DNA of 64,000 nucleotides, taken from IMG/VR virus record IMGVR_UViG_3300044695_007092, positions 11,321-75,320 of that record; one strand, 5' to 3'. This DNA comes from a virus. This document shows, in pieces, positions 16,720 through 61,847 of this stretch. The notes under the pieces were generated by a model. The model ran no database searches, was not told the origin of the DNA, and was given only the letters and a program-made list of their open reading frames with translations. The translations under genes were made by a program, and so were the position numbers. The first letter of the stretch is position 1, and the number at the start of each line of letters is the position of its first letter.

Positions 16720-16764
16720 AATAAAGGGGTGGGGTATTTCCCCCACCCCTTTATTTTTTTAGCT
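16720..16764 (+). terminator. Intrinsic terminator ending T7-AGCT
   Basis: AATAAAGGGGTGGGG/CCCCACCCCTTTATT plus T-run and AGCT. Confidence 0.85.
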
Positions 16765-16797
16765 GTAAGCAAGTAAGAGTAAAAGTAAGGGGCTTCA

Positions 16798-21390: not shown

Positions 21391-22113
21391 ATGCGTAAAA
21401 TGCCAGCTAAAGCAAGACATCCTAAGCTAGACGAGGCTTGGGAAAAATACCAAAATTTGATCAGATGGTGGGCAGCTAAGCTAAATAAGTGGTACAGTAG
21501 ACTAACTAGAACAAAAGTAAATGACACAGGTTCGATAATATCGTATCTGTTCTTAAAGCTAAATAATGCTCTCTGGCTATGGGATCCTAAAAGAGGAATT
21601 AAATTCAGCACATACTTTTCAGCTCATATCCACTTTCAGTTCAGAATTCATTATCTAAGATTTGAATCAGACAAAGAAAGTGCCAGCTTTGTAAATAGAT
21701 TCTCGCGTAATAAAACATCATTCAAGTGCAGAGTATACCACGAAACTTTACTACTTCGCTATTGGGGCGAGGGTAGAAAAGAGTCAGGCTTTATTTCTGC
21801 ATATCTTGATATAGAGCACAAAGATAGAAAAGACTATTACAACTGGGTACACGATCTTATAGAAGAACTGGGAGGTGTAGAGAAAGCATGGAAAATCTTT
21901 ACTATGACCATAAATAAAAGATCGGCAGATATACTTCATCGTAGGTTTGTACTAGGTGAAACCCTAGAACAAATAGGCAGGCATTACAAGGTTACAAGAG
22001 AAAGGATACGACAACTAGAATTCTTAGCAATGATGTCTTTAAAGGACAAATTTAAAAACAACAAAAAGCTAGAGGCTCTAGTAAAACGGTACGGTTTAGC
22101 TATCAAAGATTAA
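21391..22113 (+). CDS. Sigma70-family RNA polymerase sigma factor
   Basis: Region 2 WDPKRGIKFSTY and region 4 TLEQIGRHYKVTRERIRQLE. Confidence 0.88.
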   Translation: MRKMPAKARHPKLDEAWEKYQNLIRWWAAKLNKWYSRLTRTKVNDTGSIISYLFLKLNNALWLWDPKRGIKFSTYFSAHIHFQFRIHYLRFESDKESASFVNRFSRNKTSFKCRVYHETLLLRYWGEGRKESGFISAYLDIEHKDRKDYYNWVHDLIEELGGVEKAWKIFTMTINKRSADILHRRFVLGETLEQIGRHYKVTRERIRQLEFLAMMSLKDKFKNNKKLEALVKRYGLAIKD

Positions 22114-38022: not shown

Positions 38023-38113
38023 TAATTAATAATTGATATGCCTCTTGTTAAGGCGAGAGGCATGTCTATCTTCACGTATTTACAATAATTTACATATACA
38101 TATAGAGGGCATC

Positions 38114-39304
38114 ATGGCCAAGAAGAAAGTAGACTTAGCACAGAGCACATTCACTGATTTTTTCTCCACACAGATTAGTTCATCTCAGAACAATATAGGA
38201 AGAAGCGACATATACATGGGCGACGAGTCCCAAGCTGTCGTAATAGGTATTCCTCTTAAGGCTTTTAGCCTTAGGTACTTCTTTCAAAATGATTGTTTTC
38301 CTTTGTCCAGAATGACCGAGCTGTATGGGCCTAGCGGTTCATGCAAGACGGCATTACTGTTTGAGATGTTCAAGTGGCATGTGGATTTTTCTGGAGGTTA
38401 TGTCTACAACCTTACTGAAGCCAGGGATACCCCTGACCTTAGATCAAGTATAATAGGTCATGAAAAAGATAAAGGGTTTCCAACAAACCTATGCGGGTCT
38501 GTAGAAGAGTGGCAGAGAAGTATTACCTTGTGGCTGAAGCAGGGTAGAAAACTATGGCCTAATCTTGGAGGCTGTCCTTTTCCAGTTGCTATTGGGGTAG
38601 ACTCCTTGACCGGAGTAACAACCGAGTCAGACATCAGCGACATATGGGAAAAGAACCACGCCTCTATCGGATTTGCAAAAGGTGCTAATCTTATTAACAC
38701 TTACTGCAAGTTCCTATTCAACGAGCTAAGAGTATGGCCGTTCAGCTTCATAGGCATTAATCACGTAAAGGTATCTAAGGATGCAAGAGGGTTTACCATA
38801 AAAAGGGTACCCGGCGGCGATGCCTTGACATACCATGCCACCATGAAGATATATACAAATCTTAAAGATAAGATAGAAAAGCTTAAAGAGTCTGTAAGAG
38901 TTGTAGAGCTCTCTATGGAAAAGAACTCCTTAAGCAACGCAGGAGAAAACAGAGTCATAACCGTATCCATGAAATGGAGCGTTGATGATGAAGGTAAGCA
39001 ACATACTTTATGGGATTGGCACGAGGCTACAATAGCAACCATACTCTCTATGTCAGCTACCTTGAAAGGTAAAGCTTGCGACCTCCTAGGTCTTGATAAC
39101 ATAGACAAGTCTAGGAAAACAGCAGACTGCTCAGCTCTAGGCCTTACTAAGGCTAGCTGGACAGAGATAGGACAAGCTATAGAAGACAACAATGATTTAA
39201 GAGAAGCGTTAGATAAGATGCACGGTATCAGAAAAAGAACTCCATTTAAAATTGGAGTTCCATACTGTGATCAGATGTCTGGCGATTACGAAAGGGATGA
39301 GTAA
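38114..39304 (+). CDS. RecA/UvsX-like recombinase
   Basis: TELYGPSGSCKT, GVDSL, FIGINH, PGGDALTYHA, MEKN. Confidence 0.85.
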   Translation: MAKKKVDLAQSTFTDFFSTQISSSQNNIGRSDIYMGDESQAVVIGIPLKAFSLRYFFQNDCFPLSRMTELYGPSGSCKTALLFEMFKWHVDFSGGYVYNLTEARDTPDLRSSIIGHEKDKGFPTNLCGSVEEWQRSITLWLKQGRKLWPNLGGCPFPVAIGVDSLTGVTTESDISDIWEKNHASIGFAKGANLINTYCKFLFNELRVWPFSFIGINHVKVSKDARGFTIKRVPGGDALTYHATMKIYTNLKDKIEKLKESVRVVELSMEKNSLSNAGENRVITVSMKWSVDDEGKQHTLWDWHEATIATILSMSATLKGKACDLLGLDNIDKSRKTADCSALGLTKASWTEIGQAIEDNNDLREALDKMHGIRKRTPFKIGVPYCDQMSGDYERDE

Positions 39305-44079: not shown

Positions 44080-44577
44080 GTGGCTACCAATATATTGGGT
44101 CATGTGGACAAGAGAAGGTATAACCCAAGCCGAGACATAGCTTATTGCTGGCCCTGGATAATGAGGGCATCTATGGATAGGGTTACATCTGGAACAGGAG
44201 AGCCTTGGGCATTAAAGGTAATAGAAAAGTACAATATCAGTAATGAAGAGCTCGTAAAAGTGGCCAAATGCCTGGCCTCTTTTATGGCGCTATGCAATAA
44301 ACCAGAAGAATCTCCATCCAATCCAAAAGATGCAGTCGAGGCCAGCGGCCTTTTCGATTGCAGCGAAGAAGCCAGATTACTAGTTTTATCAGCCATGGGT
44401 GAAACCATGTTGGCTGCTTTCTTTTTAGCTATCAGAGACGTTCTGGTTGAGGATGAACCATCGCCTCTTAATGATAAAAGGTTTGCAGAACTAGTACAGG
44501 CTTCTATGGATAAACTTTGTTTAAGGAACGAATCATTTTTCAGACGTACTCTGAGAAAGATAAGGTCCTGGTTCTAA
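44080..44577 (+). CDS. Hypothetical protein
   Basis: GTG start after AAGGGA. Confidence 0.55.
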   Translation: MATNILGHVDKRRYNPSRDIAYCWPWIMRASMDRVTSGTGEPWALKVIEKYNISNEELVKVAKCLASFMALCNKPEESPSNPKDAVEASGLFDCSEEARLLVLSAMGETMLAAFFLAIRDVLVEDEPSPLNDKRFAELVQASMDKLCLRNESFFRRTLRKIRSWF

Positions 44578-48227: not shown

Positions 48228-48255
48228 TAAATTCGGGCCAAAAACGCGTCATAAT
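48228..48255 (+). promoter_or_regulatory. Repeated promoter motif, copy D
   Basis: TAAATT-N16-CATAAT with GCGT preceding CATAAT. Confidence 0.7.
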
Positions 48256-48298
48256 TATATGTTGTCTTATATATGACAACAAGAAAGGAAAGGGTGCC

Positions 48299-48544
48299 AT
48301 GGAGATACTAGGTCTCGCCCTGTTGTTAACCATAGCTTGGGCTGCTTATAGCATCCTCAAGCGGGGTAGAGGTCCAATGCGGCCTTACCTCAAGATAGAC
48401 GGACGACTTAGAGAAGTCGTCCACAGAAAGCGGATAGGCTCTTCGGTCGTGTGTACCGTAAAGCCTTTAGAGAAGGGGTCAAGTAGGCCCCGAGTAATCG
48501 TCCCTGCTGAAGGGGGCGATATTGTCTGGTTACCTAAAAGGTAA
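48299..48544 (+). CDS. Small N-terminally anchored protein
   Basis: Hydrophobic N-terminus; AAAGG RBS. Confidence 0.6.
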   Translation: MEILGLALLLTIAWAAYSILKRGRGPMRPYLKIDGRLREVVHRKRIGSSVVCTVKPLEKGSSRPRVIVPAEGGDIVWLPKR

Positions 48545-48565
48545 CCCATAAGGAGGAGTGGCACG

Positions 48566-49291
48566 ATGCTGCAGATAGAAGGAATTATCGAAAAGGGCGC
48601 TCTCGTTGAAGGCGCCGCTAAGACCCTATTTGGGGGTAAGTTTGACAATAACAGTTGGATGATGTGGTTACCCGACGACGGTCGGGAATTAACATTTAAA
48701 AGCGGAGATATATACTACGAAGAAGGGCTGCTAGCCCTAATAAGATATGGTAATAAAACCATATCGGTTTGGAAGGTAATAGATGGGGTCTTAGAGCCCC
48801 AGGTGGTGTTCATTCCAGCCAAGTTCGGGTTTGGAAAAAACAGAATAATTCCCACTGCCTCGGCGTACGCCGAAGTAGTGATGCAAAACGCAGAAGCTTC
48901 TGACATCTTGGATTTCCTTCCCCTTCCTAGAAGGGTGCTAGGCTTCCGAGAGGCAGATCTGCCAGACGTGGCGGATTTAGATCAAAAGGCCTTGGCCGGC
49001 ATGGCTAGATCTAGCGACCCCTCCAAAATGGAGGCGGCGTACAAAAAGTTCAAGAGGTCTGGGGACCTGGTATTCGTACCAGAAAGTCTGCTACCAGCGG
49101 ACTTTGTGGCTGATTACAATCAGCCATGGTGCCTCGACTTAGAGGGTTTTATAGACAGCGAGCGGTACCCAGTACCGCAGCTTGTATACCAAACCTCCCT
49201 GACGAAACACGGCCTCCATTACAGCGCCGCCACAAATGGCGCCCGTAAGGTAGGAGGAGGCCCAAAAACAAGGAAGAACGGACGCCCTTGA
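48566..49291 (+). CDS. Hypothetical protein
   Basis: AAGGAGG RBS. Confidence 0.65.
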   Translation: MLQIEGIIEKGALVEGAAKTLFGGKFDNNSWMMWLPDDGRELTFKSGDIYYEEGLLALIRYGNKTISVWKVIDGVLEPQVVFIPAKFGFGKNRIIPTASAYAEVVMQNAEASDILDFLPLPRRVLGFREADLPDVADLDQKALAGMARSSDPSKMEAAYKKFKRSGDLVFVPESLLPADFVADYNQPWCLDLEGFIDSERYPVPQLVYQTSLTKHGLHYSAATNGARKVGGGPKTRKNGRP

Positions 49292-49317
49292 TCAAGGCGG
49301 CTCGTTCTTTCAAGTTG

Positions 49318-49779
49318 GTGGTAGAGCGCACTCAACTCTACCGCGACGTCTAGGCCCGTTAAGACTATGTAATTCCTACTGCTAGCAAAAACGTATTAAT
49401 ACCTGCACTTGTAATAGGCGCCGTCTAGGTAGCCTATTAATTGCACGCGTATTTCATGGGATTATGCGACGCAAGGGTGTTAGATTCAGACGGGTCGAAA
49501 CAAAAGCTTGCCCTCACAAGCAAGTGCGTCAGAGTGGCCTAAACGGTACCCCACTCTTGTATATACCGGGTAACTGTTCGGTCTCAGGACCATGCACTCC
49601 CAGGAGTAGCGGGTTGTCTGGGCGGGTTACTGCCCCAAGAATATTGGGGAAAAAGAAGAGCGTTGTGCGGCTACAGCCGTGTTGCCATTAAATCCCCAGG
49701 GAGAGAATGGGATGACGGGTCTGTGCGGGCGTTCTTCTCCAACCAGGGCCGGGCCTAGCAATAGGCCTGGCTTTCTTTT
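49318..49779 (+). ncRNA. Candidate structured ncRNA (~460 nt)
   Basis: GC-rich region tiled with nested G-U-containing helices, ending in a GCAA hairpin plus T-tract. Confidence 0.5.
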
Positions 49780-49792
49780 AGGAGGAAGCTTT

Positions 49793-49978
49793 ATGCAAGG
49801 GATTCTGCAAGCAGAAGTTATCAGCGAGTGGCTTATCGACAAAGCTGTCGAAAGACAGTGTGTGTTGATGGCCCTTAAAGAGGCAGATAAAAAGGGCTGT
49901 GGAGACTTCAGAGTCTTCACGGCAACTGGAAATAATAATAATATAGAAGTGGTATACGTAAAAGTTTACCACGCATAA
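49793..49978 (+). CDS. Small hypothetical protein
   Basis: AGGAGG RBS before ATG 49793. Confidence 0.55.
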   Translation: MQGILQAEVISEWLIDKAVERQCVLMALKEADKKGCGDFRVFTATGNNNNIEVVYVKVYHA

Positions 49979-49983
49979 TACAT

Positions 49984-50032
49984 AAATCACAGTTAGCCTA
50001 GTTATGGCTATCTGTGATTTTTTTTTAGCTAT
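49984..50032 (+). terminator. Terminator ending T9-AGCTAT
   Basis: AAATCACAG..TAGCC/GGCTA..CTGTGATTT plus T-run. Confidence 0.75.
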
Positions 50033-50264
50033 TAGATATCTTTCTTTAATATTTCGTCTATTAAAAGTGGTATGCCGTAGCCCATCATATATACTGAGCA
50101 TACAATTAAAAACATATGATAGTAGATGTTTGTAAACAAGAAGTACCCTATGTGATCTAGGATACACAACATATCTTCTTCTAATCTCATGTTGCTTATT
50201 GCTCCAATAAACAGTAGAAAGTTACATTATAAGATATTGTCTCCATGTAAGCGAAAGGATAATC

Positions 50265-51023
50265 ATGAGCGGATACAGCGGATTGCAGTCAGTCACAAGC
50301 GGTTCAAACATAGACCCAAACAGAAAGACCACTAAAATAGTAGTAGACCCACACGAGCTGGACTCGTTTACTATAGATCTGAACGCTATGAAAGCTTCTG
50401 CTAACAAGTACTCTTTAAAGAATGATACCAGTGCCGAGCTAAGGTCTTTAAATGAGACTGATAGATCAAAAGTAATATCTAATAACCTAAGAAAGCTATC
50501 AAGTGATAAAGCAAATGAGGCTCCACCTAATCTAGGTACTGTTGCTGCTACCCTAGACGGAGCTAACCACGTACATCCTGCCGCCGCCTTACCTGAATCA
50601 GCTGTAACTCCTCCATCTGTAAGGGTTTACTTTGATATGCCAGGACTGGCCACACTGAATTCAAAATACCACGGTGTAACTGTTGTGCCAGGGTACTTAG
50701 TACTTACAACAGACCTAAGATACGCCGGATCAGGCGAGTTCTACCCTTTTACAAGTAAGCTTGCTAATGAGTCATCAGCCTATATTGGCGTGATGGTAGA
50801 AGGCATAGATAGCCTATTTCTAATCAGGCCGCCAGCTATTACTCACAAGTTTGGGCCCTATGAACACTGCCTAGTTCCAATAAGCCAAGAAAAAGATCTA
50901 CCAGAAGAGATTAAGAAGAACGTAGACGAGGTAGATAAAGAAGTGGAGACGTCTCCACAAACAGGTTATGATAATTATGAAGAATACACCAGCCCGCCTA
51001 GTGCCGATAGCGGTGTACTTTAA
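50265..51023 (+). CDS. Hypothetical protein upstream of portal
   Basis: AAGGA RBS; long ORF. Confidence 0.6.
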   Translation: MSGYSGLQSVTSGSNIDPNRKTTKIVVDPHELDSFTIDLNAMKASANKYSLKNDTSAELRSLNETDRSKVISNNLRKLSSDKANEAPPNLGTVAATLDGANHVHPAAALPESAVTPPSVRVYFDMPGLATLNSKYHGVTVVPGYLVLTTDLRYAGSGEFYPFTSKLANESSAYIGVMVEGIDSLFLIRPPAITHKFGPYEHCLVPISQEKDLPEEIKKNVDEVDKEVETSPQTGYDNYEEYTSPPSADSGVL

Positions 51024-51067
51024 TATATATAAGTATAGTACTATTTAAGCCTTAGGAGGCATATTGC

Positions 51068-52987
51068 ATGTCAGATTATTCAGAAGGAGCCCTAGGGCGC
51101 GGATGGGCCTTGAACAGCAGGGGTGACGAGCCTTTTCCAGATCCTTTCATGGACTATGCCTCTACGGTTATGCCTGAGAACATCAGGGACGCCTTGCGGT
51201 ATTGCGAATTTATTTTTCACTCAAACTCTATGATCAGAGAAGCAGCTAGAAGAGTTCTTAGTTACTTCATAACAGAAATTGAGATCAGAGCCGTCAACGG
51301 CAAGAATATGGGCGATGACGAAAAGCAAAAGTATTTGTCATTCCTCAACGACACTTTAGACATAAAAACCGTACTACATTCGGTCGGTCTGGATTTTCTA
51401 TGCTATGGTAATAGCTTCACAACTCTTATTATTCCTTTTAGACGTTATCTTTATTGCCCTAAGTGCTCTCTTGATGTGCCACTGAAGCAAGTAATCAATA
51501 ATCCTGCTTTTGGATTTAAATGGAAGATGCCTGATTTCCAGGCTAATTGCCCTAGATGTAAATACACAGGTACGTGGAAAAGAGTAGATAGACGTACTAA
51601 TGAACCAGAAGAGGTTAGAGTTCGTAGATGGCCTGCAGTCGAGATGGAAGTAAGATACGATCCTGTTAGGGATAACCGTGACTATCTATGGCGTATACCT
51701 GAAGACTACAGGATGCAAGTGCGTAGAGGAGACCCCCAAGTTTTAGAAACTGTTCCCTGGGAAATAATAGAAGCTATATCATCCAATGGCTTTTTATTAT
51801 TCGATAAGAAGGCGGTTCATCATATGTATGAGCCGACTCTGTCAGGGGTAAGATCTAGAGGTTGGGGTATCTCACGTACTTTAATTAACTTTCGTCATGC
51901 ATGGTATGTGCAGGTTCTTCACAGGTATAACGAGGCTATTGCCTTGGACTATGTGATACCATTTAGGGTTTTGACACCTGCTCCGCAGTCTAGCTCAATG
52001 CCAGAAGCAGGCGATCCTTTAATGAATATGGATCTAGGCGGGTTACGTGGTCAGGTGCAGGCTATGCTTAGAAAGAGACGAAGAGATCCTGCTGCTTGGC
52101 ACTTCTTAAGCACACCTATTCAATATAATATGATGGGCGGAGAAGCTAGAAACCTAGCCCCTACTGACTTACTTGAATCAGGCGTCAACATGCTCTTAAA
52201 CGGCTTTGGTATGCCAGCTGAATTATACAAAGGCACCCTAAGCCTTCAGGCAGCATTACCTGCTATTAGGTTATTTGAATCGAGCTGGCAGTATTTGATA
52301 CATTGCTTGAATAACTTTCTTACCGAAACAACTAAAGCAGTAGGTGACGCATTTGGCTGGGAGCCTGCCACTTGCCGTCTTATCAAACCTTCAATGCTCG
52401 ACGATGTTCAACTTATCATGTCCAAGATGCAGCTTATGCAGGCTCAGCAGGTCAGCCAGACCGGAGTTCTCAGAAGCATGGGTATGGACTTCAAAGAAGA
52501 ACAAAGGCAAATCCTCGACGAGCAAAGGTTTATGCAGGAAGAGCAGGCCAAGATGCAGAAGAGTATGGAAGACTCTTCTCTCATGGAACAGATGGCTCCT
52601 TCTGTCACCGGCCAGTTCATGCAGAATATGCAAGCGCAGGCTCAAGGCGGGCAGCCCGCGCCCCAGGGAGCTCAGCCTCCTCCTGGACCAGCACAGAGCG
52701 CTCCTCCTCAAGGGCCTGCAGGAATGGCTGCGCAAGGTATGTCTATCGCTACTCCTACCGGACCTAATGAGAAGGTTACACCGCAGGATATGCAGGCTAA
52801 AGCACAAACTATAGCAGACCAGATGCTGTCTATGCCTGAGTCGCAGAGACAGTCTGAGATGACTAAGCTTAAGTCTCAAGACCCAGTTATTCACAGTTTG
52901 GTTAAGCAGACAATAGGAAACATCAGGCAGCAGGCTCAAACTCAAGGAGCTCGCATGATGTTACAGCAGCAGTATGGTACTCAATAG
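51068..52987 (+). CDS. Probable portal protein with zinc-ribbon insert and Q/M/P-rich tail
   Basis: VGLDFLCYGNSF and VHHMYEPTLSG..RGWGISR portal-like motifs; LNGFGMPAEL. Confidence 0.7.
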   Translation: MSDYSEGALGRGWALNSRGDEPFPDPFMDYASTVMPENIRDALRYCEFIFHSNSMIREAARRVLSYFITEIEIRAVNGKNMGDDEKQKYLSFLNDTLDIKTVLHSVGLDFLCYGNSFTTLIIPFRRYLYCPKCSLDVPLKQVINNPAFGFKWKMPDFQANCPRCKYTGTWKRVDRRTNEPEEVRVRRWPAVEMEVRYDPVRDNRDYLWRIPEDYRMQVRRGDPQVLETVPWEIIEAISSNGFLLFDKKAVHHMYEPTLSGVRSRGWGISRTLINFRHAWYVQVLHRYNEAIALDYVIPFRVLTPAPQSSSMPEAGDPLMNMDLGGLRGQVQAMLRKRRRDPAAWHFLSTPIQYNMMGGEARNLAPTDLLESGVNMLLNGFGMPAELYKGTLSLQAALPAIRLFESSWQYLIHCLNNFLTETTKAVGDAFGWEPATCRLIKPSMLDDVQLIMSKMQLMQAQQVSQTGVLRSMGMDFKEEQRQILDEQRFMQEEQAKMQKSMEDSSLMEQMAPSVTGQFMQNMQAQAQGGQPAPQGAQPPPGPAQSAPPQGPAGMAAQGMSIATPTGPNEKVTPQDMQAKAQTIADQMLSMPESQRQSEMTKLKSQDPVIHSLVKQTIGNIRQQAQTQGARMMLQQQYGTQ

Positions 52988-52995
52988 AATAAAAA

Positions 52996-53532
52996 ATGAA
53001 AATAATCATGAGCACTATAAGTAATTTCTTTAAAATGCTTATGGACCTCAACCATGAAAGGGAAGAGGCCAAGGATGGCAGCATGATCCCAGAAGCAGAG
53101 ATTAGCGAACTTCTAGAGCTACACAACAAGACTAGAAGCGTTTATGATCTTCCGCCGTTGGAAATGGATAAAGACTGTGTTCTGGTAGCGCAGTCGCATG
53201 CAACTTGGATGGCTAATTCTCAGAATATATCCCATATGGGTTTTAGCTTCTTTGGTCCTTCTCAAAGGATGGCTATAGTAGGTCAAGACCCTGATAGGCT
53301 AGGAGAGTGCATATCTTTTTCAGTAAGCGGCGACGTCAAAGACCTTATGAAATCGTGGTTTACATCTGAAAGCCATAAAAATATAATCCTTGGTAAATAC
53401 GATAGAATAGGAATAGGTAGAGCCGTAGGCTATATGGATGCTAACTATTACTGGTGTGCAGTATATAGCACTAGTAAAAAGGCAAAAGGATCGCCAAAAG
53501 TACAGATGTCAGACAGCTTAGTCGACGTATAG
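52996..53532 (+). CDS. CAP/SCP domain protein
   Basis: LELHNKTR...LPPL...AQSHATWMA...SH...GE...WFTSESHKNIIL...IGIG...YW. Confidence 0.88.
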   Translation: MKIIMSTISNFFKMLMDLNHEREEAKDGSMIPEAEISELLELHNKTRSVYDLPPLEMDKDCVLVAQSHATWMANSQNISHMGFSFFGPSQRMAIVGQDPDRLGECISFSVSGDVKDLMKSWFTSESHKNIILGKYDRIGIGRAVGYMDANYYWCAVYSTSKKAKGSPKVQMSDSLVDV

Positions 53533-53543
53533 AAAGTCAGACA

Positions 53544-54305
53544 ATGATTAAAATAATGGCCTGTACGGTAGCCTCCCCTACTCCAAGAAATGAAGTATGG
53601 GCTTCTCTACAGTCTACATTTCTAGATAGAACTAAATTTGCAGAAGTGCATAAGCATGTAGTTATAAACGGAGCATCCCCGGTTCCGTGGTTAGATAACG
53701 GATATAAGATTATAAGCCACTGGGCTTATAACAAAGGGCACCTGCAAGGACTTAGATCAATAATAGACAACTTTAAAGTCAGTGAGTGCGACTGGTTACT
53801 TATACTAGATAGTGATGCTTGGCCCATAAGAGATGACTGGTTTGCAGTCTGTGACAAGCTTATGAGCGAAAAAGGAAAAGAAGGATGCGCCGCTATAAGA
53901 TGTGAGAACTTTGATACATTTCCTCATCCGTGCATATTTTTAGCAAACAAGTCGCTAATCAACAGAGGGGCAGAGTTCGACCTTAGAACTGATATTAATC
54001 TTTTAGGGAACATAGTAACTGATCTAGCTGTGTCCCATGTAGACTTTGATAACTATTTTATTCCTTTGCTAAGGAGTAACAAGGTAAATCATCATCCCCT
54101 GTTTGGAGGTATATACAATCACTTGTTCTACCATCACGGGGCAGGAAGTAGGCTTGCAGATTTAACTAGAGTAGGAATGTCAGGCATGCACGACCATTAC
54201 ATCAGTAATACATCTCATGCAGCAGTAGAGGCAGCGATGTATTCTTCCTTATCAACAGACCCAAAGAGCTATTTGAATAAGCTAATAGTCGGAGTTGCCC
54301 TATGA
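53544..54305 (+). CDS. Glycosyltransferase (GT-A)
   Basis: LLILDSDAWP DxD; FYHHGAGSR. Confidence 0.7.
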   Translation: MIKIMACTVASPTPRNEVWASLQSTFLDRTKFAEVHKHVVINGASPVPWLDNGYKIISHWAYNKGHLQGLRSIIDNFKVSECDWLLILDSDAWPIRDDWFAVCDKLMSEKGKEGCAAIRCENFDTFPHPCIFLANKSLINRGAEFDLRTDINLLGNIVTDLAVSHVDFDNYFIPLLRSNKVNHHPLFGGIYNHLFYHHGAGSRLADLTRVGMSGMHDHYISNTSHAAVEAAMYSSLSTDPKSYLNKLIVGVAL

Positions 54306-54913
54306 AGTATAAGCTGCAGCCTTTTCTTGAGTGGTACAAGGCCCAGGAGCTATCAAAGCCTTGGTTAGTAGTAGGTAAAGGGCCTAGCTTTAGCCATATA
54401 AATAAAGTTGACCTTGATAGCTACTCTGTACTAGCTCTCAACCATGTTATGTTTGAAATACCCTGTCTTTTAGGGCATGCCATAGATTTAGATGTTTACA
54501 ATACGTCGGATAATAAATTTTTATGCCAACATTTAGTAACACCATGGGAACCGCATATAAACTTTAAACCAGGTAACAAAAGCCTTTTAGATCTCATGTT
54601 CGAGAACAGGTTAGAGTACAGAAATATTCTTTATTACAACAGCAGCAGAACAAGAAATAAGAATCTAAAGTATAAAGGCCCAGATGTCAGGGTTAGGTTT
54701 TTTGGATCAGTGGCTGCCATGAACCTACTTGCTATGGCCGGAGTAAAGACTATACATACATTAGGCATAGACGGTGGCTCAAAGTATCATCCAAGCTTTG
54801 ATGAAGCTGACCTTTTAGCTAACGGAAGACAGTCATTTGATTCTCAGTTTTCTGAGTTTAAGCTAACTGAGAAGCGTTATGGTGTTACTATAAGTCCATT
54901 AAATTTAAAATAG
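54302..54913 (+). CDS. Maf/DUF115-like (sialyltransferase-like) protein
   Basis: LVVGKGPS, VLALN, AMAGVKTIHTLGIDG. Confidence 0.6.
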   Translation: MKYKLQPFLEWYKAQELSKPWLVVGKGPSFSHINKVDLDSYSVLALNHVMFEIPCLLGHAIDLDVYNTSDNKFLCQHLVTPWEPHINFKPGNKSLLDLMFENRLEYRNILYYNSSRTRNKNLKYKGPDVRVRFFGSVAAMNLLAMAGVKTIHTLGIDGGSKYHPSFDEADLLANGRQSFDSQFSEFKLTEKRYGVTISPLNLK

Positions 54914-54968
54914 GTAGTGATATTTATTTAATAAATAGGTATCATACCCCAAATTATTGGAGATAGTT

Positions 54969-55721
54969 ATGGCTACTGGCCCTATAAAGATTTTCGTAGG
55001 CACTGAGATTAAGACTAAAGTACCATTGGATGTTCTCTCTTATTCAATAAAGAGAAGAACCTCCCATGAGGTTAGTATAGTACCTATGATAGGTAGTGGG
55101 TGGGAAGTTCCAAAAGGGCTTCACCAAGGCACTGGATTCAGCCTTAGAAGGTTCATGATACCTAATGCATGCAACTACGAAGGCCATGCAATTTATCTAG
55201 ACGCTGATCAGTTATGTCTTGGGGACATATCAGAACTTTGGGGATATGCCGATAAGTTAGTAGGCAAGGCCGTAGCCTGTACATATCAGCCTGACAAGTT
55301 CAGCAAGACCCCATGGCCTAATACTTCTGTAATGTTGATAGACTGCCATAACGCAGGCTGGAACCCGGCTGAGCTGTGGGACATGCTTAGAAGAGGCTAT
55401 AACTATCCTAACTTTATGCATCTTACCTTTATGGATAGCATGCCTTTGATGATACCTACTTTCTGGAATCATCTTAATGTGCATGAGGACGCTACTACCA
55501 GAATTCTGCACTACACCAAGGAGCCTGAGCAGCCTTGGTATAAGCCTAGTCATTCTTTAGCCAGTCTATGGGAAAGAGAGCTTGTTCAAGCCATATCAGC
55601 TGGCGCTGTGAGCAAGAAAGACTTTGAATTTGCTTTAGACTTATGGCATAAACCTAAGCTAGATAAGAGGTTAACTCAAGGGCTTCACCCGCATTATAAA
55701 AAGTATCTAGGAAACTTCTAA
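54969..55721 (+). CDS. Glycosyltransferase family 8-like
   Basis: TGFSLRRF, IYLDADQ, TSVMLIDC, WNHL, LHYT..QPW. Confidence 0.8.
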   Translation: MATGPIKIFVGTEIKTKVPLDVLSYSIKRRTSHEVSIVPMIGSGWEVPKGLHQGTGFSLRRFMIPNACNYEGHAIYLDADQLCLGDISELWGYADKLVGKAVACTYQPDKFSKTPWPNTSVMLIDCHNAGWNPAELWDMLRRGYNYPNFMHLTFMDSMPLMIPTFWNHLNVHEDATTRILHYTKEPEQPWYKPSHSLASLWERELVQAISAGAVSKKDFEFALDLWHKPKLDKRLTQGLHPHYKKYLGNF

Positions 55722-56434
55722 TGCGCATAGGCAAGCTATATAACATTCACAAAGGTGAAGACATATACATAGTAGGCACAGGACCTACAGCTAGGATGCT
55801 TCCTAGCAATATACTCTCAGGCAGAATAACTATAGGGCTTAACCAGGCGTACAAGAACTTTAATGTACTGTATTCAATAACCGTTCATCCAGAGCTAGAG
55901 GTTGAGTACAGGGATGTTTTAAAGGCTAATCCTAGTGTTAGCACTAAGTGGATAGTTAAGCAAAAGCCTCCTACAAATCTACCTTTTGATGACCCGGGCA
56001 GATATGTATTTAAGACAAGCCCTGAATGGGCAGGGTTCATAGGCAAGGACAAGGATACCCTTTTCGTTGGAAGAGGTGTGCAGCAGACAGCCATAGATAT
56101 GGCTTGTAGAATGGGAGCAAGGGCTATATTTTTAATAGGCGTTGATATGTCAGATTTAGGTGGAGATCACCATTCTCATAACCAACACGTTAGATTTCAT
56201 GGCCTTCCCCATGAGGACGTTTATTCAGAATATAGAGCATGGACTTATAAATCTAGAAAATTGGCTCGAGAAAAGGCCAAAATTCCTGTATTATCGTTAT
56301 CACCACTTTTAGGGTGTGGCGGTGCGATCCACGATGCTGATTACGTTCAGCTTAGGGATGAGCTTGGCTTGGCTAAGTTGCCAGAGCCAAAAGACACTTC
56401 CGGATATTCCAGAAGTAAAATAGATAACCCTTAG
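55721..56434 (+). CDS. Maf/DUF115-like (sialyltransferase-like) protein
   Basis: HKGEDIYIVGTGPT, TIGLN, MGARAIFLIGVDM. Confidence 0.65.
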   Translation: MRIGKLYNIHKGEDIYIVGTGPTARMLPSNILSGRITIGLNQAYKNFNVLYSITVHPELEVEYRDVLKANPSVSTKWIVKQKPPTNLPFDDPGRYVFKTSPEWAGFIGKDKDTLFVGRGVQQTAIDMACRMGARAIFLIGVDMSDLGGDHHSHNQHVRFHGLPHEDVYSEYRAWTYKSRKLAREKAKIPVLSLSPLLGCGGAIHDADYVQLRDELGLAKLPEPKDTSGYSRSKIDNP

Positions 56435-56448
56435 TTAGGAGTATTATT

Positions 56449-57606
56449 ATGGCGAGCAGGTATGACAATTTGAATACGGCTATTGCAGCTACTGTGGACG
56501 ATAGCAAGAAGAACAAGCCATATCGTATTATCGAGATTGGCGTCCATAAAGCAGCTAGAGCTGTAATGATGGTTAAACTTGCAAAGAAGCTAGGTCGAAC
56601 AAACATAGAATACTATGGATTTGATCTGTTTGAGGACATGACTCCTAGCGTTAATCAAGATGAGTTTGGAAAGCCAGAATTAGCTCTTAGCAGGGAAGAG
56701 GCTAGGAAAAAGATAATTGAAGCCGGTGCTTCTAAGGTGCAGCTTGTAAAAGGCGATACAAGAGTAACCCTAGCGCAAGCTGTAAAGGATATTCCTATTG
56801 CCAATGTTGTATTCGTAGATGGGGGCCACACTATTGAGACTATCGCAAGCGACCTTGAGAACATTCTCAACTGCTGCGGTGAAAAGACTCGCATTCTTTT
56901 GGACGACTGCTATCCAAGCGTATATGACAGAGGGTGTGCATTCTTAGCTAAGTGTTTTAGTATTCTGAAAGAATACGGCATTACGATGGAAGAGCTACAT
57001 CCTGTAGACGTTTTTGAAAAGAATCCCTACGGCGAAGGTTCGCTCAACGTAAGAATTATGTCGTTAAGGTGCGCAGCTCAGTTAACTCCAGCAAAGCTTG
57101 AAGGTTTAGGCTCTAAGCTGATCTACGAAGCAAACCCTTCAGGGCCCGAACCAAAAGAATTCTTCCCTGAGAAGTCCTTCGTAGAAACGAAAAGCGAGGC
57201 CAGCGAACCTGCTGGAGAGACCTTTCAACCCGCTGATAGCAGCTGTGATACCGACGTACAACCAGTTCGAGTATGCGAGAATAGCTGTGGAAACCTTCCT
57301 GGAGAACACTGCGAACGGGCTAGTGATACTTGTGGACGATGGGAGCCCCCATTGGAAGCCAGAAGCGTGGAGCAAGTTCCCGAAGAACAAACTCCTGTTG
57401 TACAGGTTCCCGAAGAACGACAAGAACCTGACCAGATCGTGGAACCAGGGAATCCGCTTGGCCTTGGAGCACCATGCTCAAGTGATAATAGCGGGGAACT
57501 CAGACCTGAAGTTTCCCCAGAACTGGAGCAAGGGAATAATAGAGGCTCTAGAAGAAGGCGCAGGCGTGGTAGGGCCGATGACGAACGCTCCGGGCCACAG
57601 GCCTAG
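56449..57606 (+). CDS. Class I SAM methyltransferase (Methyltransf_24-like) with disordered tail overlapping the next gene
   Basis: IIEIGVH, YYGFDLFE, LVKGDT, FVDGGH, LLDD. Confidence 0.78.
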   Translation: MASRYDNLNTAIAATVDDSKKNKPYRIIEIGVHKAARAVMMVKLAKKLGRTNIEYYGFDLFEDMTPSVNQDEFGKPELALSREEARKKIIEAGASKVQLVKGDTRVTLAQAVKDIPIANVVFVDGGHTIETIASDLENILNCCGEKTRILLDDCYPSVYDRGCAFLAKCFSILKEYGITMEELHPVDVFEKNPYGEGSLNVRIMSLRCAAQLTPAKLEGLGSKLIYEANPSGPEPKEFFPEKSFVETKSEASEPAGETFQPADSSCDTDVQPVRVCENSCGNLPGEHCERASDTCGRWEPPLEARSVEQVPEEQTPVVQVPEERQEPDQIVEPGNPLGLGAPCSSDNSGELRPEVSPELEQGNNRGSRRRRRRGRADDERSGPQA

Positions 57607-57967
57607 ACAACACGTCAGTAGGTTCGTCAGCAGCTATGTTGTCGACGACTCTGATAGTTACATCTCAAAGATATCCAACCTTCTTTATAAAGAGAAGGTT
57701 GGATGCACTGAGAAAGGCCCTCTAAACGGCTTCTGTCTTGCAGCTAGGGCTGCCACATGGAAGGCAGGGGCTTACAGCTTATCGAACCATCACTTCTTTA
57801 ATCCTAAGTTCAAGATGACCCGCAATGAAGATGAGCTTATGGGTAGATTTAAGAAGCTAGGAATAAGCAGCCGCATAGCTTGTTCTAGTTTTGTGTTTCA
57901 TTACAGAGGTGTTACCAGACATCCTTCCGGAAGAAGCGCCGGCAAGGGTCATTTAAGGATAAAGTAA
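57233..57967 (+). CDS. Glycosyltransferase family 2 (start uncertain; possibly frameshift-fused to the upstream gene)
   Basis: LIAAVIPTYN, LVDDGS, WNQG, GNSD, VGPMTN, NEDE, FVFHYRG. Confidence 0.8.
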   Translation: MIAAVIPTYNQFEYARIAVETFLENTANGLVILVDDGSPHWKPEAWSKFPKNKLLLYRFPKNDKNLTRSWNQGIRLALEHHAQVIIAGNSDLKFPQNWSKGIIEALEEGAGVVGPMTNAPGHRPRQHVSRFVSSYVVDDSDSYISKISNLLYKEKVGCTEKGPLNGFCLAARAATWKAGAYSLSNHHFFNPKFKMTRNEDELMGRFKKLGISSRIACSSFVFHYRGVTRHPSGRSAGKGHLRIK

Positions 57968-58587
57968 TGAGGTACTGGAAACCTAGGAAGATAAGCCCAG
58001 ATTCCAAGGTTTGCATATCTGTGGTGACCTACAATCAAACAGACTGCCTATCCTCTTTGATTCACGCATTAAAAGCTCAAACCTTTAATAACTTCAGTGC
58101 GTATATACTTCACGATGGGCCATGGTCTTCTGCCGCCAATAGGTGTTATGTAAACGCCGTTGATGGTGACTCTAGATTTTTTCAAATGAATGGAGCCATC
58201 AGGCAGGCTAAGTTCGGTCACGCTTTAAGGCAGGTAGGGTTTGATAATGGTATAAAGAACGGCTGCAACTGGTTATGCACTATGAATGCAGACTGCTGGT
58301 ATGCCCCTGTATATTTTGAATGGATGCTAGGCTCAGCCCATGAAAATAAATCTAACTTTGTTTACTGTAACCTGGTTCACAGTCACAAGTTATGGAAACC
58401 AATGACCTCAGAACTAAAGAGAGGCTCTATAGACGCAGGTAACTGGATAGCGGATACTGGCTTAGTGGGTAGCACTAAATGGGAAAGCACCGACTTCGCT
58501 GCAGACTGGACGTACATAAGTAAACTTAAATCTAAACCCGACTTTAGGCCCAGTAAAGTCGATGGTTATATATTTACACACAACTGA
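57967..58587 (+). CDS. Glycosyltransferase family 2
   Basis: ISVVTYNQ, ILHDG, MNADCWY, AADW. Confidence 0.78.
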   Translation: MRYWKPRKISPDSKVCISVVTYNQTDCLSSLIHALKAQTFNNFSAYILHDGPWSSAANRCYVNAVDGDSRFFQMNGAIRQAKFGHALRQVGFDNGIKNGCNWLCTMNADCWYAPVYFEWMLGSAHENKSNFVYCNLVHSHKLWKPMTSELKRGSIDAGNWIADTGLVGSTKWESTDFAADWTYISKLKSKPDFRPSKVDGYIFTHN

Positions 58588-58589
58588 TT

Positions 58590-59630
58590 ATGAAGATAGG
58601 CTTCGATGTACAGTATAAACCTCACGACGCCGTCTACGCAGCGTTGAGGTTATCTGATTCATTGAGGTATCTTGGATACGATACAACTCTATTTAGTAAC
58701 AAGACCCCTAAACACAATTACGGTTGCGGCTGGGACAAGCTGGTCATAACTCCAAAAGATATGTCATATGATAAATGGCTACTAGGTCTTAGCCATGTAA
58801 TATGGCCTGTACCTCCTAATAAAGATGTTGTACAGAAAGTAGGTAAGTCTATAGTTACCATAGCTTTATCTCCATGGGACTGCCTTCCAGGTTATGTAAA
58901 GAGCTCTTTAAGGCTGTGTGCCCATGTAGTTACGCCATGCCTTGAGAACTCAGACACAGTAAGGAAAGAAGCCAATATTAGAGACGTCTCCACAATTGAG
59001 TGGGACAGCTCTATACCCATGACCAAAAAGGATTTAAATGATATAGATCCTAGCAGGCCTAAGGTTCTTATACCTTTGCACTCTAGCCAAGGCCTTAGAT
59101 GCGACTTGGAAATCCTATGCAACATAATATCAGGCATAGCGGAGAAAAGCCCTCAAGCTGATATAACCATATCTTATAGTCCTAAGAGTATGCCATGGGA
59201 GGTAAGGAAGTCTTTATTTAGTTACCTCAAGAAGCATAAGAATATAAAAGGCGTAATAGATGAGACAACTTGTACTAGTTCCTTACTGCTTTATGGGTAT
59301 AGTGATATAGTATTGTGGCCTGCTGAGATTGAAGGTTTTGGCTTAGTGGGAATAGAGTCTATCTACATGGGCACACCAGTAGTGGCCTATGACATACCCC
59401 CAATGTCAAATATAATAACAAATGGAGTTAACGGTATGTTAGTGCCGTGCGACGATGGAGGCTCTAAAGGCGGAGTTATGTATGCAGAGCCTAATCCATC
59501 TGAGTTTATAAAAGTGGCGACTGATGCCATAAATGAAAAAATACTGGCACTTAACAAGAATACTAAGGTAGGCAGGCGATCAGTTAGAAGCATGTTTTAC
59601 TCACAGTGGAAGAAGTTAATAGAGGGCTAA
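58590..59630 (+). CDS. Glycosyltransferase family 4 (GT-B)
   Basis: EGFGLVGIES...GTPVVAYDIP...ITNGVNGMLV. Confidence 0.85.
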   Translation: MKIGFDVQYKPHDAVYAALRLSDSLRYLGYDTTLFSNKTPKHNYGCGWDKLVITPKDMSYDKWLLGLSHVIWPVPPNKDVVQKVGKSIVTIALSPWDCLPGYVKSSLRLCAHVVTPCLENSDTVRKEANIRDVSTIEWDSSIPMTKKDLNDIDPSRPKVLIPLHSSQGLRCDLEILCNIISGIAEKSPQADITISYSPKSMPWEVRKSLFSYLKKHKNIKGVIDETTCTSSLLLYGYSDIVLWPAEIEGFGLVGIESIYMGTPVVAYDIPPMSNIITNGVNGMLVPCDDGGSKGGVMYAEPNPSEFIKVATDAINEKILALNKNTKVGRRSVRSMFYSQWKKLIEG

Positions 59631-59633
59631 CAC

Positions 59634-59999
59634 ATGGATGTTCTAGCTGTAAGACAAGAAGAGAAGCTGTGGGGCCGCAACCATATTATTCATTTGGATA
59701 ATTCCTTTCAGATCTGCCACATACATATCCTTAAAGGCGGATACTGCTCTAATCACTTTCATCAGAACAAGTGGAATCAATTCTATATTGTCTCGGGTAG
59801 ACTGATGGTCAGCTGCTATAACCCAGATGGTACTATAAAGAGCACCATCATTCTTAGACCTACCGAGTGCATCAAAGTACCACCTGGCTTAAACCATAAG
59901 TTTGAAGCTTTAGAAGAGACTGAAGCTTTGGAGATCTATTGGTCTGAGCTATCTGAGCACGATATTGTGCGTACAGACGTAGGCGGCATCAAGGCTTAA
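59634..59999 (+). CDS. Cupin, sugar isomerase-like
   Basis: KLWG, CSNHFHQNK, VPPGLNHKFEALE, DIVR. Confidence 0.8.
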   Translation: MDVLAVRQEEKLWGRNHIIHLDNSFQICHIHILKGGYCSNHFHQNKWNQFYIVSGRLMVSCYNPDGTIKSTIILRPTECIKVPPGLNHKFEALEETEALEIYWSELSEHDIVRTDVGGIKA

Positions 60000-60023
60000 T
60001 TCAACCCATAATAGTGTCATAAT
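59996..60023 (+). promoter_or_regulatory. Repeated promoter motif, copy A
   Basis: TTAATT-N16-CATAAT. Confidence 0.7.
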
Positions 60024-60224
60024 ATAGTGATACCGATAGGTATTAGCCCAATCGAGATAGCGGCTTTAAAGGTACTCGTAAGCCCAACTGACTGTTCCTG
60101 TCAGGTTGGTAATATGGCCTAGGAACCCTCCAGAGATAGACCAGCGTAATTGGTCTCTGGTGGAGGTAGAGCTGGTCTCCTCTATTGGTGGGAAGAATCT
60201 CCAAAGAAGGATGTAAATTCCTTC

Positions 60225-60251
60225 CGTCTTGAGCAGGACGTTAAACTGCTT
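60225..60251 (+). repeat. Pseudoknot motif copy 1
   Basis: CGTCTTGAGCAGGACGTTAAACTGCTT. Confidence 0.85.
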
Positions 60252-60272
60252 CATTTGTAGTTTATCGCTGGT

Positions 60273-60299
60273 GTCCTGAGTAAGACTTTAAACTGCTCA
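60273..60299 (+). repeat. Pseudoknot motif copy 2
   Basis: GTCCTGAGTAAGACTTTAAACTGCTCA. Confidence 0.85.
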
Positions 60300-60445
60300 T
60301 ATTTATGGCACCGGAGGTAAAGCCCTCTGGCCGTGCACGCCGGCAGCGTGGTAGGAAACCCACCAAGGAAATGGGGTATGGATGAAACTTCCATATATCT
60401 CCCTATACCCACGGGAGATATTGCTCGCACCTTGAGGGAAGGTGC

Positions 60446-60473
60446 CGTCCTGGAGCAGGACGTTAAACTGCTC
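60446..60473 (+). repeat. Pseudoknot motif copy 3
   Basis: CGTCCTGGAGCAGGACGTTAAACTGCTC directly before the T-run. Confidence 0.85.
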
Positions 60474-60495
60474 TTTTTTTAGCTATCACACACTC

Positions 60496-60523
60496 TTAAT
60501 TCAACTAATAAGTGCGTCATAAT
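60496..60523 (+). promoter_or_regulatory. Repeated promoter motif, copy B
   Basis: TTAATT-N16-CATAAT. Confidence 0.75.
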
Positions 60524-60594
60524 GATATGAAAGCGTAGGTATTAGGCAAGCTCGATAGCTTGTCACCTATGTGAGTATATACATGGAGGTTCTC

Positions 60595-60900
60595 ATGACT
60601 ACGTTAGTAAAATCCTTATTGCCTTGCGTAACGGTATCTCAGTCCCTGCGCAGAGAAGGTTTCAAAAGAGTGATAGGATATGGTTCGAACTCTGCAGAAA
60701 TCAGACCAAATAAAAGATTGTGCGGAGTAATGATTGATGTAGATGTACAGTCAGGAGTGTTCTCTTGTGTCCTGCTAAACGACTGGGACGATTCGTCCTG
60801 CATGTACATGAGCTCTAATTTGCAGCAAGACCAGTTCGCCAGCGAAAGCTGGAGTGAATTGGTACAGTGGATAAAGCAATCCCCAAGAAGGATTGCTTAA
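60595..60900 (+). CDS. Hypothetical protein (cassette B payload)
   Basis: GGAGG RBS. Confidence 0.6.
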   Translation: MTTLVKSLLPCVTVSQSLRREGFKRVIGYGSNSAEIRPNKRLCGVMIDVDVQSGVFSCVLLNDWDDSSCMYMSSNLQQDQFASESWSELVQWIKQSPRRIA

Positions 60901-60903
60901 TTT

Positions 60904-60953
60904 AAGAAACACATCATGCCTTCGGGTGTGGTGTGTTTCTTTTTTTAGCTATC
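60904..60953 (+). terminator. UUCG-capped terminator ending T7-AGCTATC
   Basis: 17-bp stem, cTTCGg loop. Confidence 0.9.
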
Positions 60954-60973
60954 ACACATCCTATCTCGTTATG

Positions 60974-61001
60974 TTAATTGGACTTATAAACGCGTCATAA
61001 T
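60974..61001 (+). promoter_or_regulatory. Repeated promoter motif, copy C
   Basis: TTAATT-N16-CATAAT. Confidence 0.75.
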
Positions 61002-61070
61002 AGTATGAAAGGATAGGTTATCAGTCATCTAACAGGTGACGCCTAATCTTAGTTGTTCATGGAGGCTAAT

Positions 61071-61334
61071 ATGAACATGAATATTGCGAATTATGTACTT
61101 TTAGACAAGCTCTCTAATTTGTATGCAGGTGATAACTGCGACGGGCTGGTATTCGTCGCAACTGTAGACCTTGATGGTGGTGATCGTTTTAAGTATGCTC
61201 CTTGGGTGCCAGCCACCAAGTCTCAAGAGGACGTCTATTGGGTCGCCCGTAAAAGTGCAGAGGATTTTGGTAAGGAGTCTTTCTGCGCTGAAACTGGTGA
61301 GTCATCATACCACTGCACCTGCGGGTGGCATTAA
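61071..61334 (+). CDS. Hypothetical protein (cassette C payload)
   Basis: GGAGG RBS; C-terminal HCTCGWH. Confidence 0.6.
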   Translation: MNMNIANYVLLDKLSNLYAGDNCDGLVFVATVDLDGGDRFKYAPWVPATKSQEDVYWVARKSAEDFGKESFCAETGESSYHCTCGWH

Positions 61335-61338
61335 AATG

Positions 61339-61365
61339 CGTCCTGAGCCGACGTTAAAGGGCTCA
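61339..61365 (+). repeat. Pseudoknot motif copy 4 (covarying)
   Basis: CGTCCTGAGCCGACGTTAAAGGGCTCA. Confidence 0.8.
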
Positions 61366-61388
61366 CAGCGTATGAGCGTATGCTGTTG

Positions 61389-61435
61389 ATCAACCTTACT
61401 CCTGGGCGGAGTGAGGTTGATTTTTTTTAGCTATC
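61389..61435 (+). terminator. Terminator ending T8-AGCTATC
   Basis: ATCAACCTTACTCC/GGAGTGAGGTTGAT stem. Confidence 0.88.
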
Positions 61436-61492
61436 AGACACTCCTATCCTAGGTTATCATTCAAGTAACTACTTTAATGAGGTGCCAACGAT

Positions 61493-61822: not shown

Positions 61823-61847
61823 GCGCTTTTAAAGAAAGGTTGTTTAG

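Follow-up and report, generated by a model that had tools for sequence, protein, structure and literature searches.

Known arrangements of accessory phage genes include the morons of lambdoid phages, which are usually individually distinct, and the terminal host-takeover module of SPO1, which has reiterated early promoters and terminators. A further arrangement comes from T4-type phages, where, in the passages compared here of two studies (PMC2839356, Arbiol et al. 2010; PMC4122927, Comeau et al. 2014), promoter-early stem-loop (PeSL) modules mediate insertions, deletions and replacements of ORFans by homologous recombination. Here we describe a family of modular cassettes in IMG/VR virus record IMGVR_UViG_3300044695_007092, a 75,320-bp viral contig (G000), of which bases 11321-75320 were analyzed (64,000 nucleotides [nt], hereafter the window, whose numbering is used unless another contig is named). 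Each cassette runs from a shared promoter, through small open reading frames (ORFs) or structured RNA, to a hairpin, a T-run and a conserved tail that begins AGCTAT. At least eight related IMG/VR phages share the promoter and the tail at both loci where the window has cassettes, and differ in cassette number, order and payload. We consider it likely that these are autonomous transcription cassettes, shuffled in a PeSL-like manner by homologous recombination at their repeated terminator-promoter joints.

A cassette family defined by promoter and tail

The contig holds five units, four in the window (unit 1 on its own and units 2 to 4 in tandem) and a fifth upstream of it, at G000 6607-7495. An earlier note, made from the letters of the window, had placed the same four units, and the positions of promoters and tails, observed directly, confirm each of them (Table 1). 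The family is real and far above chance. Specifically, the full promoter pattern, T[TA]AATT-N12-G[CT]GTCATAAT, occurs five times in the 75,320-bp contig and in none of 300 dinucleotide shuffles; T5-AGCTAT occurs six times, for a shuffle mean of 0.19; and every one of the five promoters has a tail after it, no more than 2 kb away and ahead of the next promoter, an arrangement given by 0 of 100,000 random placements. The shared promoter of the earlier note holds in this extended form, but not as the looser TWAATT-N16-CATAAT, which alone has four matches where 2.06 are expected and is not significant; the significance of the promoter is thus due to the extended consensus. Over 42 unique contexts from the clade, that consensus covers about 35 bp and reads C-TTAAT(T/C)C-(a/g)a-cc-c-ATAA-ny-GCGTCATAAT-N4-TG, with the C before the -35 box, the spacer ATAA and the TG at the predicted start all conserved outside the search pattern. 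Its -10 box is CATAAT, and its -35 box, TTAATT, is atypical.

At the other end of the units, a hairpin of -10 to -27 kcal/mol stands directly before a run of seven to nine T, as in an intrinsic terminator. Four of the five putative terminators tested fold strongly (-18.8 to -26.9 kcal/mol, z -4.9 to -8.2), that of unit 2 being weak, and the tails of the three tandem units read AGCTATCA(C/G)AC. Two strong terminators on the coding strand, at G000 8586 and 21493, are tail-less, so that the tail marks a class of terminators and not all of them. What had been taken for a partial cassette end at 16754 is indeed a strong terminator, but with a variant tail, AGCTGT, and no family promoter upstream.

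Cassette turnover at the tandem locus

Relatives, drawn from at least 10 IMG/VR contigs and labeled G or L below, were gathered by a pattern scan for the tail and by two protein-anchored scans. The tandem locus lies downstream of a glycosyltransferase gene and a very conserved cupin gene, and relatives with 52-83% amino acid (aa) identity in that glycosyltransferase have one to five cassettes there, with promoter and tail shared and payloads different. Window and nearest relative are collinear, at about 79% nucleotide identity, to 60024, just past CATAAT, and from there on the joints alone match. Homology of L022, L023 and L027 to the window restarts at 61418-61422, the start of the last T-run. 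L024 corresponds to L023 without cassette 1, the junction falling within the promoter repeat, and also without cassettes 3 and 4, the junction here falling at the T-run and AGCTAT. In G001, promoter and tail stand only about 110 bp apart, a nearly empty unit, as against one of 890 bp in the contig, and the unit 3 ORF has different neighbors in the window, G001 and L024 and no homolog in the examined part of the nearest relative. Several relatives' contigs terminate within the array, which is expected because the region is repeat-rich and polymorphic.

Comparison of relatives had been set beforehand as the test on which modular cassettes might fail, through a fixed content or through breakpoints unrelated to the motif. 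Turnover is seen directly in that comparison: content, number and order vary, as the earlier note had proposed, and the breakpoints lie at motif-bearing junctions. Further, two hallmarks of PeSLs are present, in that the borders of insertions, deletions and replacements between relatives coincide with the motifs and the variable regions adjoin ORFans.

The predicted RNA of unit 2 illustrates both the mobility and the modularity. This conserved RNA is built from a leader hairpin, several GGATG..AAAyTTCC hairpins in repetition and pseudoknot modules, with module numbers that vary among L020, L022 and L027, and it has no Rfam match; across the window, Rfam gave nothing at gathering score, and in the units its matches were no better than chance level. 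The RNA comes first among the cassettes of the window and of L022 and second among those of L027, and its segment 60225-60297 is 94.5% identical to L027 versus about 71% in the flanking genes. A small ORF in this unit (34 codons, reading through the terminator) was considered as a conserved gene and discarded, as it is frameshifted in the alignment with the nearest relative.

Two side observations concern this region. First, a hairpin or pseudoknot of about 28 nt, GTC-yTGAGnnn-GAC-GTTAAA-nnnCTC, is present in four copies, with a conserved loop GACGUUAAA and compensatory stem changes (GAGCAG/CTGCTC, GAGTA/TGCTC, TGAGCC/GGCTCA); one copy also serves as the unit 2 terminator and, together with its tail, is unchanged across six cassettes, from five genomes, that differ in payload. 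Second, the cupin protein is 92-96% identical in most relatives (57% in L026) versus 60-83% for the glycosyltransferase beside it, which suggests strong constraint or recent exchange beside a recombination-prone array.

The unit 1 slot and lake populations

Unit 1 had been read as interrupting otherwise core-like genes, which does not hold in the sense of a private insertion: all relatives have the same promoter-to-tail slot between the same two genes, with varying payloads. The slot holds the same three ORFs in L028 and L029, at 31-62% aa identity versus 62-87% for the flanking genes, the first ORF alone in L031 and L032, two other cassettes in L033 and L036, and yet another payload in L034 and L035. 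Because the unit 1 ORFs have diverged more than their flanks, fast divergence explains part of the impression, given in the earlier note, that payloads are unrelated; that description stands to the extent that no payload protein reached a Pfam or PHROG family at a meaningful score, and protein-atlas searches of the 241-aa and 101-aa payload ORFs gave no usable lead. Between the second and third ORFs lies a GC-rich, non-coding stretch of about 500 nt that folds better than its shuffles (z -3.3) and has no Rfam match. The nearest relative has a structured stretch in its place (z -5.0), and blastn cannot align the two. The cassettes are where the clade stores its fastest-changing genes and RNAs, and the functions of their payloads likely lie in host interaction.

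Turnover also extends into natural populations. A contig from an independent lake sample is identical to the window over 59731-62300, and variant lake contigs depart from it at 59994 and 60000, at the promoter edge. In one variant, 60026 (past the -10 box) is joined to 60308; in another, 61048 (the leader end) is joined to 61418 (the T-run), so that the unit 4 payload is skipped or replaced; and a further one breaks at 61441, directly past the tail, with another family promoter following at 18-nt spacing.

These data bear on the simplest alternative, namely, that nothing is shuffled and that the payloads are vertically inherited, fast-evolving early genes whose joints are conserved as regulatory signals. 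The homology of the unit 1 ORFs in L028 and L029, at far greater divergence than their flanks, speaks for that account. As an account of the family, however, it is barely tenable, given cassette numbers of 1 to 5, differing orders, clean deletions with junctions in repeats, the empty unit of G001 and the variants within lake populations.

Table 1. Coordinates of the cassette units and of other features in the window
Feature	Coordinates	Strand	Remarks
Unit 1 promoter, TAAATT-N16-CATAAT, GCGT before -10 box	48228..48255	+	Homologous promoter at the slot in L028, L029, L033 and L034
Unit 1 payload	48299..49978	+	ORFs 48299-48544 (81 aa), 48566-49291 (241 aa) and 49793-49978 (61 aa), no family match, homologs only in L028 and L029; structured non-coding stretch 49292-49792
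Unit 1 terminator, hairpin, T9 (50018-50026), AGCTATTA tail	49984..50034	+	-18.8 kcal/mol, z -7.6; T-run and AGCTAT 50018-50032
Unit 2 promoter	59996..60023	+	Begins in the stop codon of the conserved cupin gene; synteny with nearest relative ends at 60024
Unit 2 payload, non-coding modular RNA	60024..60451	+	Repeated small hairpins (60222-60250, 60278-60303); no conserved ORF
Unit 2 terminator, hairpin GAGCAG..CTGCTC, loop GACGTTAAA, T7 (60474-60480), AGCTATCACAC	60452..60491	+	-10.3 kcal/mol, z -1.7; T-run and AGCTAT 60474-60486
Unit 3 promoter	60496..60523	+	Pattern match; 16 nt past the A of the preceding AGCTAT
Unit 3 payload ORF, 101 aa	60595..60900	+	No known family; homologs (74-77% aa) in G001/L021 and L024
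Unit 3 terminator, 17-bp hairpin, T7 (60940-60946), AGCTATCACAC	60904..60957	+	-24 kcal/mol, z -8.2; T-run and AGCTAT 60940-60952
Unit 4 promoter	60974..61001	+	Pattern match; 28 nt past the A of the preceding AGCTAT
Unit 4 payload ORF, 87 aa	61071..61334	+	No homolog in any relative compared
Unit 4 terminator, 15-bp hairpin, T8 (61421-61428), AGCTATCAGAC	61388..61439	+	Right border of the variable region; T-run and AGCTAT 61421-61434
Strong terminator with variant tail T7-AGCTGT	16720..16766	+	-26.9 kcal/mol; unlinked to a family promoter
T5-AGCTATCAG inside ORF 44080-44577	44421..44434	+	Kept in L028 (nearest relative) only, absent in G001; probably coding or chance
Sigma factor gene	21391..22113		Sigma70 region 4 clear (41.8 bits), region 2 match weak
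SbcC-like gene	23325..25460		
RecA-like match	38033..39304		11.8 bits, short match of about 60 residues
Cupin gene	59634..59999		
Hairpin/pseudoknot of about 28 nt, four copies	60222-60250, 60278-60303, 60449-60480, 61340-61366		
Palindrome of up to 18 bp, three copies	5054-5071, 42789-42806, 50943-50960		Cores at 5056, 42791 and 50945; further copies upstream of the window at G000 5032 and 8495

Breakpoints and the integron-like alternative

The earlier note had read AGCTATCAsAC as a recombination/insertion or protein-binding site of an integron-like, cassette-shuffling system. In a strict form of the integron-like reading, the hairpin and this sequence would together form an attC-like site for a dedicated recombinase. 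The layout, a variable hairpin with a short conserved sequence, is attC-like; the hairpin families to the left of the tail assort independently of the spacer and promoter families to its right, combining with them variously; and the lake variant that breaks at 61441 does so just past the tail. Nevertheless, no tyrosine or serine recombinase came to light. The Phage_integrase family (PF00589) had no match in G000, G001 (92% complete), G002 (100%), G003 (100%) or G005, in a search whose control matched in 14 of 14 genomes, and the Resolvase family of serine recombinases (PF00239) had none in the same five genomes, with a control that worked. Homing endonucleases were considered as drivers and rejected, none being conserved: GIY-YIG had no match in the five genomes, and HNH was found in only two of them. 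The cassettes, moreover, carry their own promoters, whereas those of integrons are promoterless and served by a common one. Neither does an attC-like core appear, since the hairpins are unrelated at orthologous sites and the conserved block lies past the T-run and outside the hairpin; the T-run itself is accounted for by termination, and single terminators outside any array also have the tail (16754 and G001 70905). Finally, breakpoints reach well beyond AGCTAT. They are spread over the promoter edge, the T-run, the leader end and the sequences past the -10 box and past the tail, a pattern that looks like the edges of homology patches rather than a single crossover. We therefore regard a dedicated site-specific system as very improbable.

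The tail as a conserved element of terminators

Homologous recombination leaves the tail itself in need of discussion. At the orthologous last terminator of five genomes, T7-AGCTATCAG is the sole invariant block, preceded by five hairpins that are unrelated and followed by a poorly conserved untranslated region (UTR). Across the clade, 61 of the 62 unique T5+AGCTRT sites have a hairpin of -7 kcal/mol or stronger before them, and in these 61 hairpin-associated tails, positions 7-12, which lie outside the search pattern, read Y, A (57/61), G (46/61), a/c, C and A. The T-run is mostly seven to eight bases long (range, 5 to 9). Invariance at orthologous sites, presence with other promoter types and restriction to one class of terminators together argue that the tail is under selection.

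The earlier note had held that conservation beyond the U-tract is not needed for termination. That was too strong, as a purine and U after U7 raise intrinsic termination (2026 preprint, doi 10.64898/2026.05.29.728758), although this effect reaches the first one or two bases of the tail at most; it may explain the first A, not the next 8-11 bases.

Stem-loop and promoter are joined in one intergenic module, and the distance between them is restricted. The first T of TTAATT lies 16-18 nt from the A of AGCTAT in eight unique spacers, 28-29 nt in another eight, and 126 and 135 nt in the remaining two, so that 16 of 18 unique joints fall into two classes. The classes differ by about one helical turn, and the spacers of the 16-18 class are unrelated in sequence, which suggests a helical phasing in which the T-run and tail are positioned relative to a promoter when one follows. 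This is not a general rule. The G002/G003 sub-clade keeps the tail with downstream promoters of another type, TATAAT, and some tails have a ribosome-binding site within about 10 nt or no family promoter after them.

One possible explanation is that T7-AGCTATCAG serves mainly as a protein-binding site, be it for a factor that enforces or relieves termination or as an upstream promoter element, and that shuffling is a by-product. Such a role would agree with the restriction of the tail to one terminator class while strong tail-less terminators exist, with its invariance at orthologous sites where hairpins and downstream UTRs diverge, with its retention in G002 and G003 despite other promoters, and with the two spacing classes and their unrelated spacers. 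TAGCTA is, besides, a 6-bp palindrome, and relatives have an 18-bp palindrome between the tail and the -35 box. No candidate protein that would bind the tail was identified, however, and tails that abut a ribosome-binding site or lack a family promoter show that it is not solely a promoter element. The T-run length of 5 to 9 makes for a loose register between tail and hairpin, and the apparent signal of a fixed downstream -10 box is driven by related sequences. As the main explanation of the locus, we hold protein binding to be rather unlikely. A kindred proposal, that T7-AGCTATCAG is a discrete cis-element for a phage or host factor, defining a special class of terminators and joints for termination control or targeted recombination whatever the promoter type, is one we offer as speculative. 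If it were true, the host, and a signal shared with it, might be indicated by those Planctomycetota genomes in which the tail recurs.

Two other roles were considered for the tail and rejected. First, -10-like hexamers cluster at offsets of 20-22 and 27 past the tail, as they might if it were a late or second promoter; it is related sequences in the G002/G003 sub-clade that produce the clustering, and a ribosome-binding site directly adjoins several tails, which rules this out as a general explanation. Second, the tail is not a general terminator signal of the host. Among about 185,000 species genomes, its 19-mer matched nine genome contigs, close to the chance expectation, and five of these are from Planctomycetota. 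One Planctomycetota genome has five copies of the 14-mer, four of them in one repeat family ending in hairpin-T7-AGCTATCAGCCAAAT, and in 400 kb of that genome the tail followed 1 of 176 T-runs of at least six. In 200 further Planctomycetota genomes, there were 11 matches to the tail versus six to a control. The matches are thus a weak hint at the host phylum and not a phylum-wide signal.

Two sequence features near the tails deserve mention in their own right. A perfect palindrome of up to 18 bp, (A)GTGGAGACGTCTCCAC(T), recurs along the genomes (Table 1), with its 12-mer core present five times in the 75-kb contig, 26 times in G001 and not in G003, for a chance expectation below 0.02. Copies lie mostly within ORFs, in all three frames, 4-16 kb apart and at orthologous positions kept across genomes, and in G001, L024 and L025 cassette promoters also have one placed precisely between their -35 box and the AGCTATCA tail; the palindrome looks like a candidate binding site, at the DNA level, of a dimeric protein. 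Several terminators of the G002/G003 sub-clade that bear this tail, or one related to it, have long hairpins with a copy of the tRNA T-loop in their loops (GGTTCAAATCC or GGTTCAATTCC; G003 at about 51015, 54046 and 97377, L010 at 7561, L016 at 5189), and ARAGORN does not call these hairpins as tRNAs.

The source phage

The contig, with an estimated completeness of 36%, comes from an uncultured lake phage of about 190-200 kb that belongs to a deep, non-T4 lineage. Its relatives' genomes measure 181-204 kb, one of them with direct terminal repeats, and the public runs with the locus are all lake or freshwater metagenomes. Nearly all genes lie on the + strand. Those recognized include a family A DNA polymerase with a UDG-like domain, a gpA-type terminase, an SbcC-like ATPase, a helicase, a primase-like protein and a sigma factor (Table 1). 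The best phage matches of the polymerase reach 22-26% identity and are to non-T4 phages, and megablast of both cassette loci against 50,697 GenBank phages returned no match, indicating that there is no close cultured relative. A tRNA search of the window found none, and a search for a T7-like RNA polymerase gave no match, as did its positive control.

A proposed mechanism based on repeated joints

We propose that the cassette promoter would be read by host RNA polymerase early in infection, or else by the phage's sigma factor, which may be the reader of promoters with the atypical -35 box TTAATTC. Each unit would deliver a small ORFan or a non-coding RNA and end at an intrinsic terminator, with AGCTAT(C/T)A(G/C) after its U-tract, so that the tail of one unit and the promoter of the next would form a composite joint. 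Because that joint is repeated within the genome and common to the clade, it supplies patches of identity, at which homologous recombination could delete, insert, replace or reorder the payloads between. The tail would be a selected part of its terminator class, as a terminator-distal or joint element or a factor-binding site, rather than a dedicated recombination site, and would double as a right-hand homology patch only secondarily. Support for recombination genes is uneven. RecA/UvsX-like matches are strong in G002 (83 bits) and G003 (78 bits), those in G001 (15.9 bits) and the contig fall short of the family cut-off, and G005 has none; the window also has an SbcC-like gene (Table 1).

Several points weigh against recombination at the joints as a full account. 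Promoter and terminator function, and early timing, are predicted from sequence, and the atypical -35 box together with the phage's own sigma factor means that the promoters may not be host-dependent. In the contig itself, the RecA-like assignment is weak (Table 1), and the patch offered by the tail, 15-17 bp, is short for homologous recombination. The population data are assembled contigs, in which circles (such as the mini-circles that exchange between adjacent PeSL motifs would yield), rare joints and frequencies are invisible. Recombination alone, further, explains neither the invariance of the tail across sub-clades with other promoters (G002 and G003) nor the constraint on its distance to the promoter, 16-18 or 28-29 nt. 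Lastly, the phage is not T4-like, which makes its joints analogues of PeSLs and not members of that class.

Comparison with known systems

What is new here is the invariance of the tail at orthologous sites, its independence from promoter type and the two spacing classes, along with the tail-less terminators, the results of the recombinase and endonuclease searches and the variants in lake populations. With morons and early host-takeover modules, the lake phage shares self-contained units of promoter, gene and terminator that carry accessory genes of unknown function between conserved ones; it differs in that its unit ends are near-identical across units and clade and are tied to demonstrable turnover. 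With integron cassettes, it shares arrays of small cassettes, a structured variable element with a short conserved end sequence and a content that varies among relatives. It departs from the attC/IntI arrangement in having no integrase, a promoter and terminator for each unit, its conserved sequence outside the hairpin and breakpoints spread over the joint.

For the tail, the nearest described signal is GC(U)7RU (Battaglia et al. 2026, doi 10.64898/2026.05.29.728758), which likewise has a purine after the U-tract, every tail beginning with A after T7-9. That signal comprises two bases, R and U, whereas the second base of the tail is G and its conservation extends 9-12 nt further. The tail is a clean natural example of a short box past the U-tract that stays invariant amid turnover, and a concrete, testable candidate for an unrecognized terminator-distal or joint signal.

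The closest parallel is to PeSLs, as they appear in the passages compared. In the two systems alike, small ORFans of hyperplastic regions are flanked by a composite motif of terminator and promoter that recurs, insertions, deletions and replacements have their borders at such motifs, and the shuffling is attributed to homologous recombination between the repeats. The lake phage differs, however, in being no T4-type myovirus, with its family A polymerase carrying a UDG-like domain and its gpA-type large terminase, and in its promoter, where the -35 box (TTAATTC) is atypical and the start site shows a conserved TG. Its stem-loop is a separate upstream terminator, whereas that of PeSLs lies within or overlaps the promoter, and its invariant 9-12-nt box past the U-tract, kept across promoter types, has no PeSL counterpart in those passages. 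If our reading is correct, the PeSL principle, by which accessory genes have crossover points built in as repeated terminator-promoter joints, is not a peculiarity of T4 and operates also in unrelated, uncultured large phages of freshwater.

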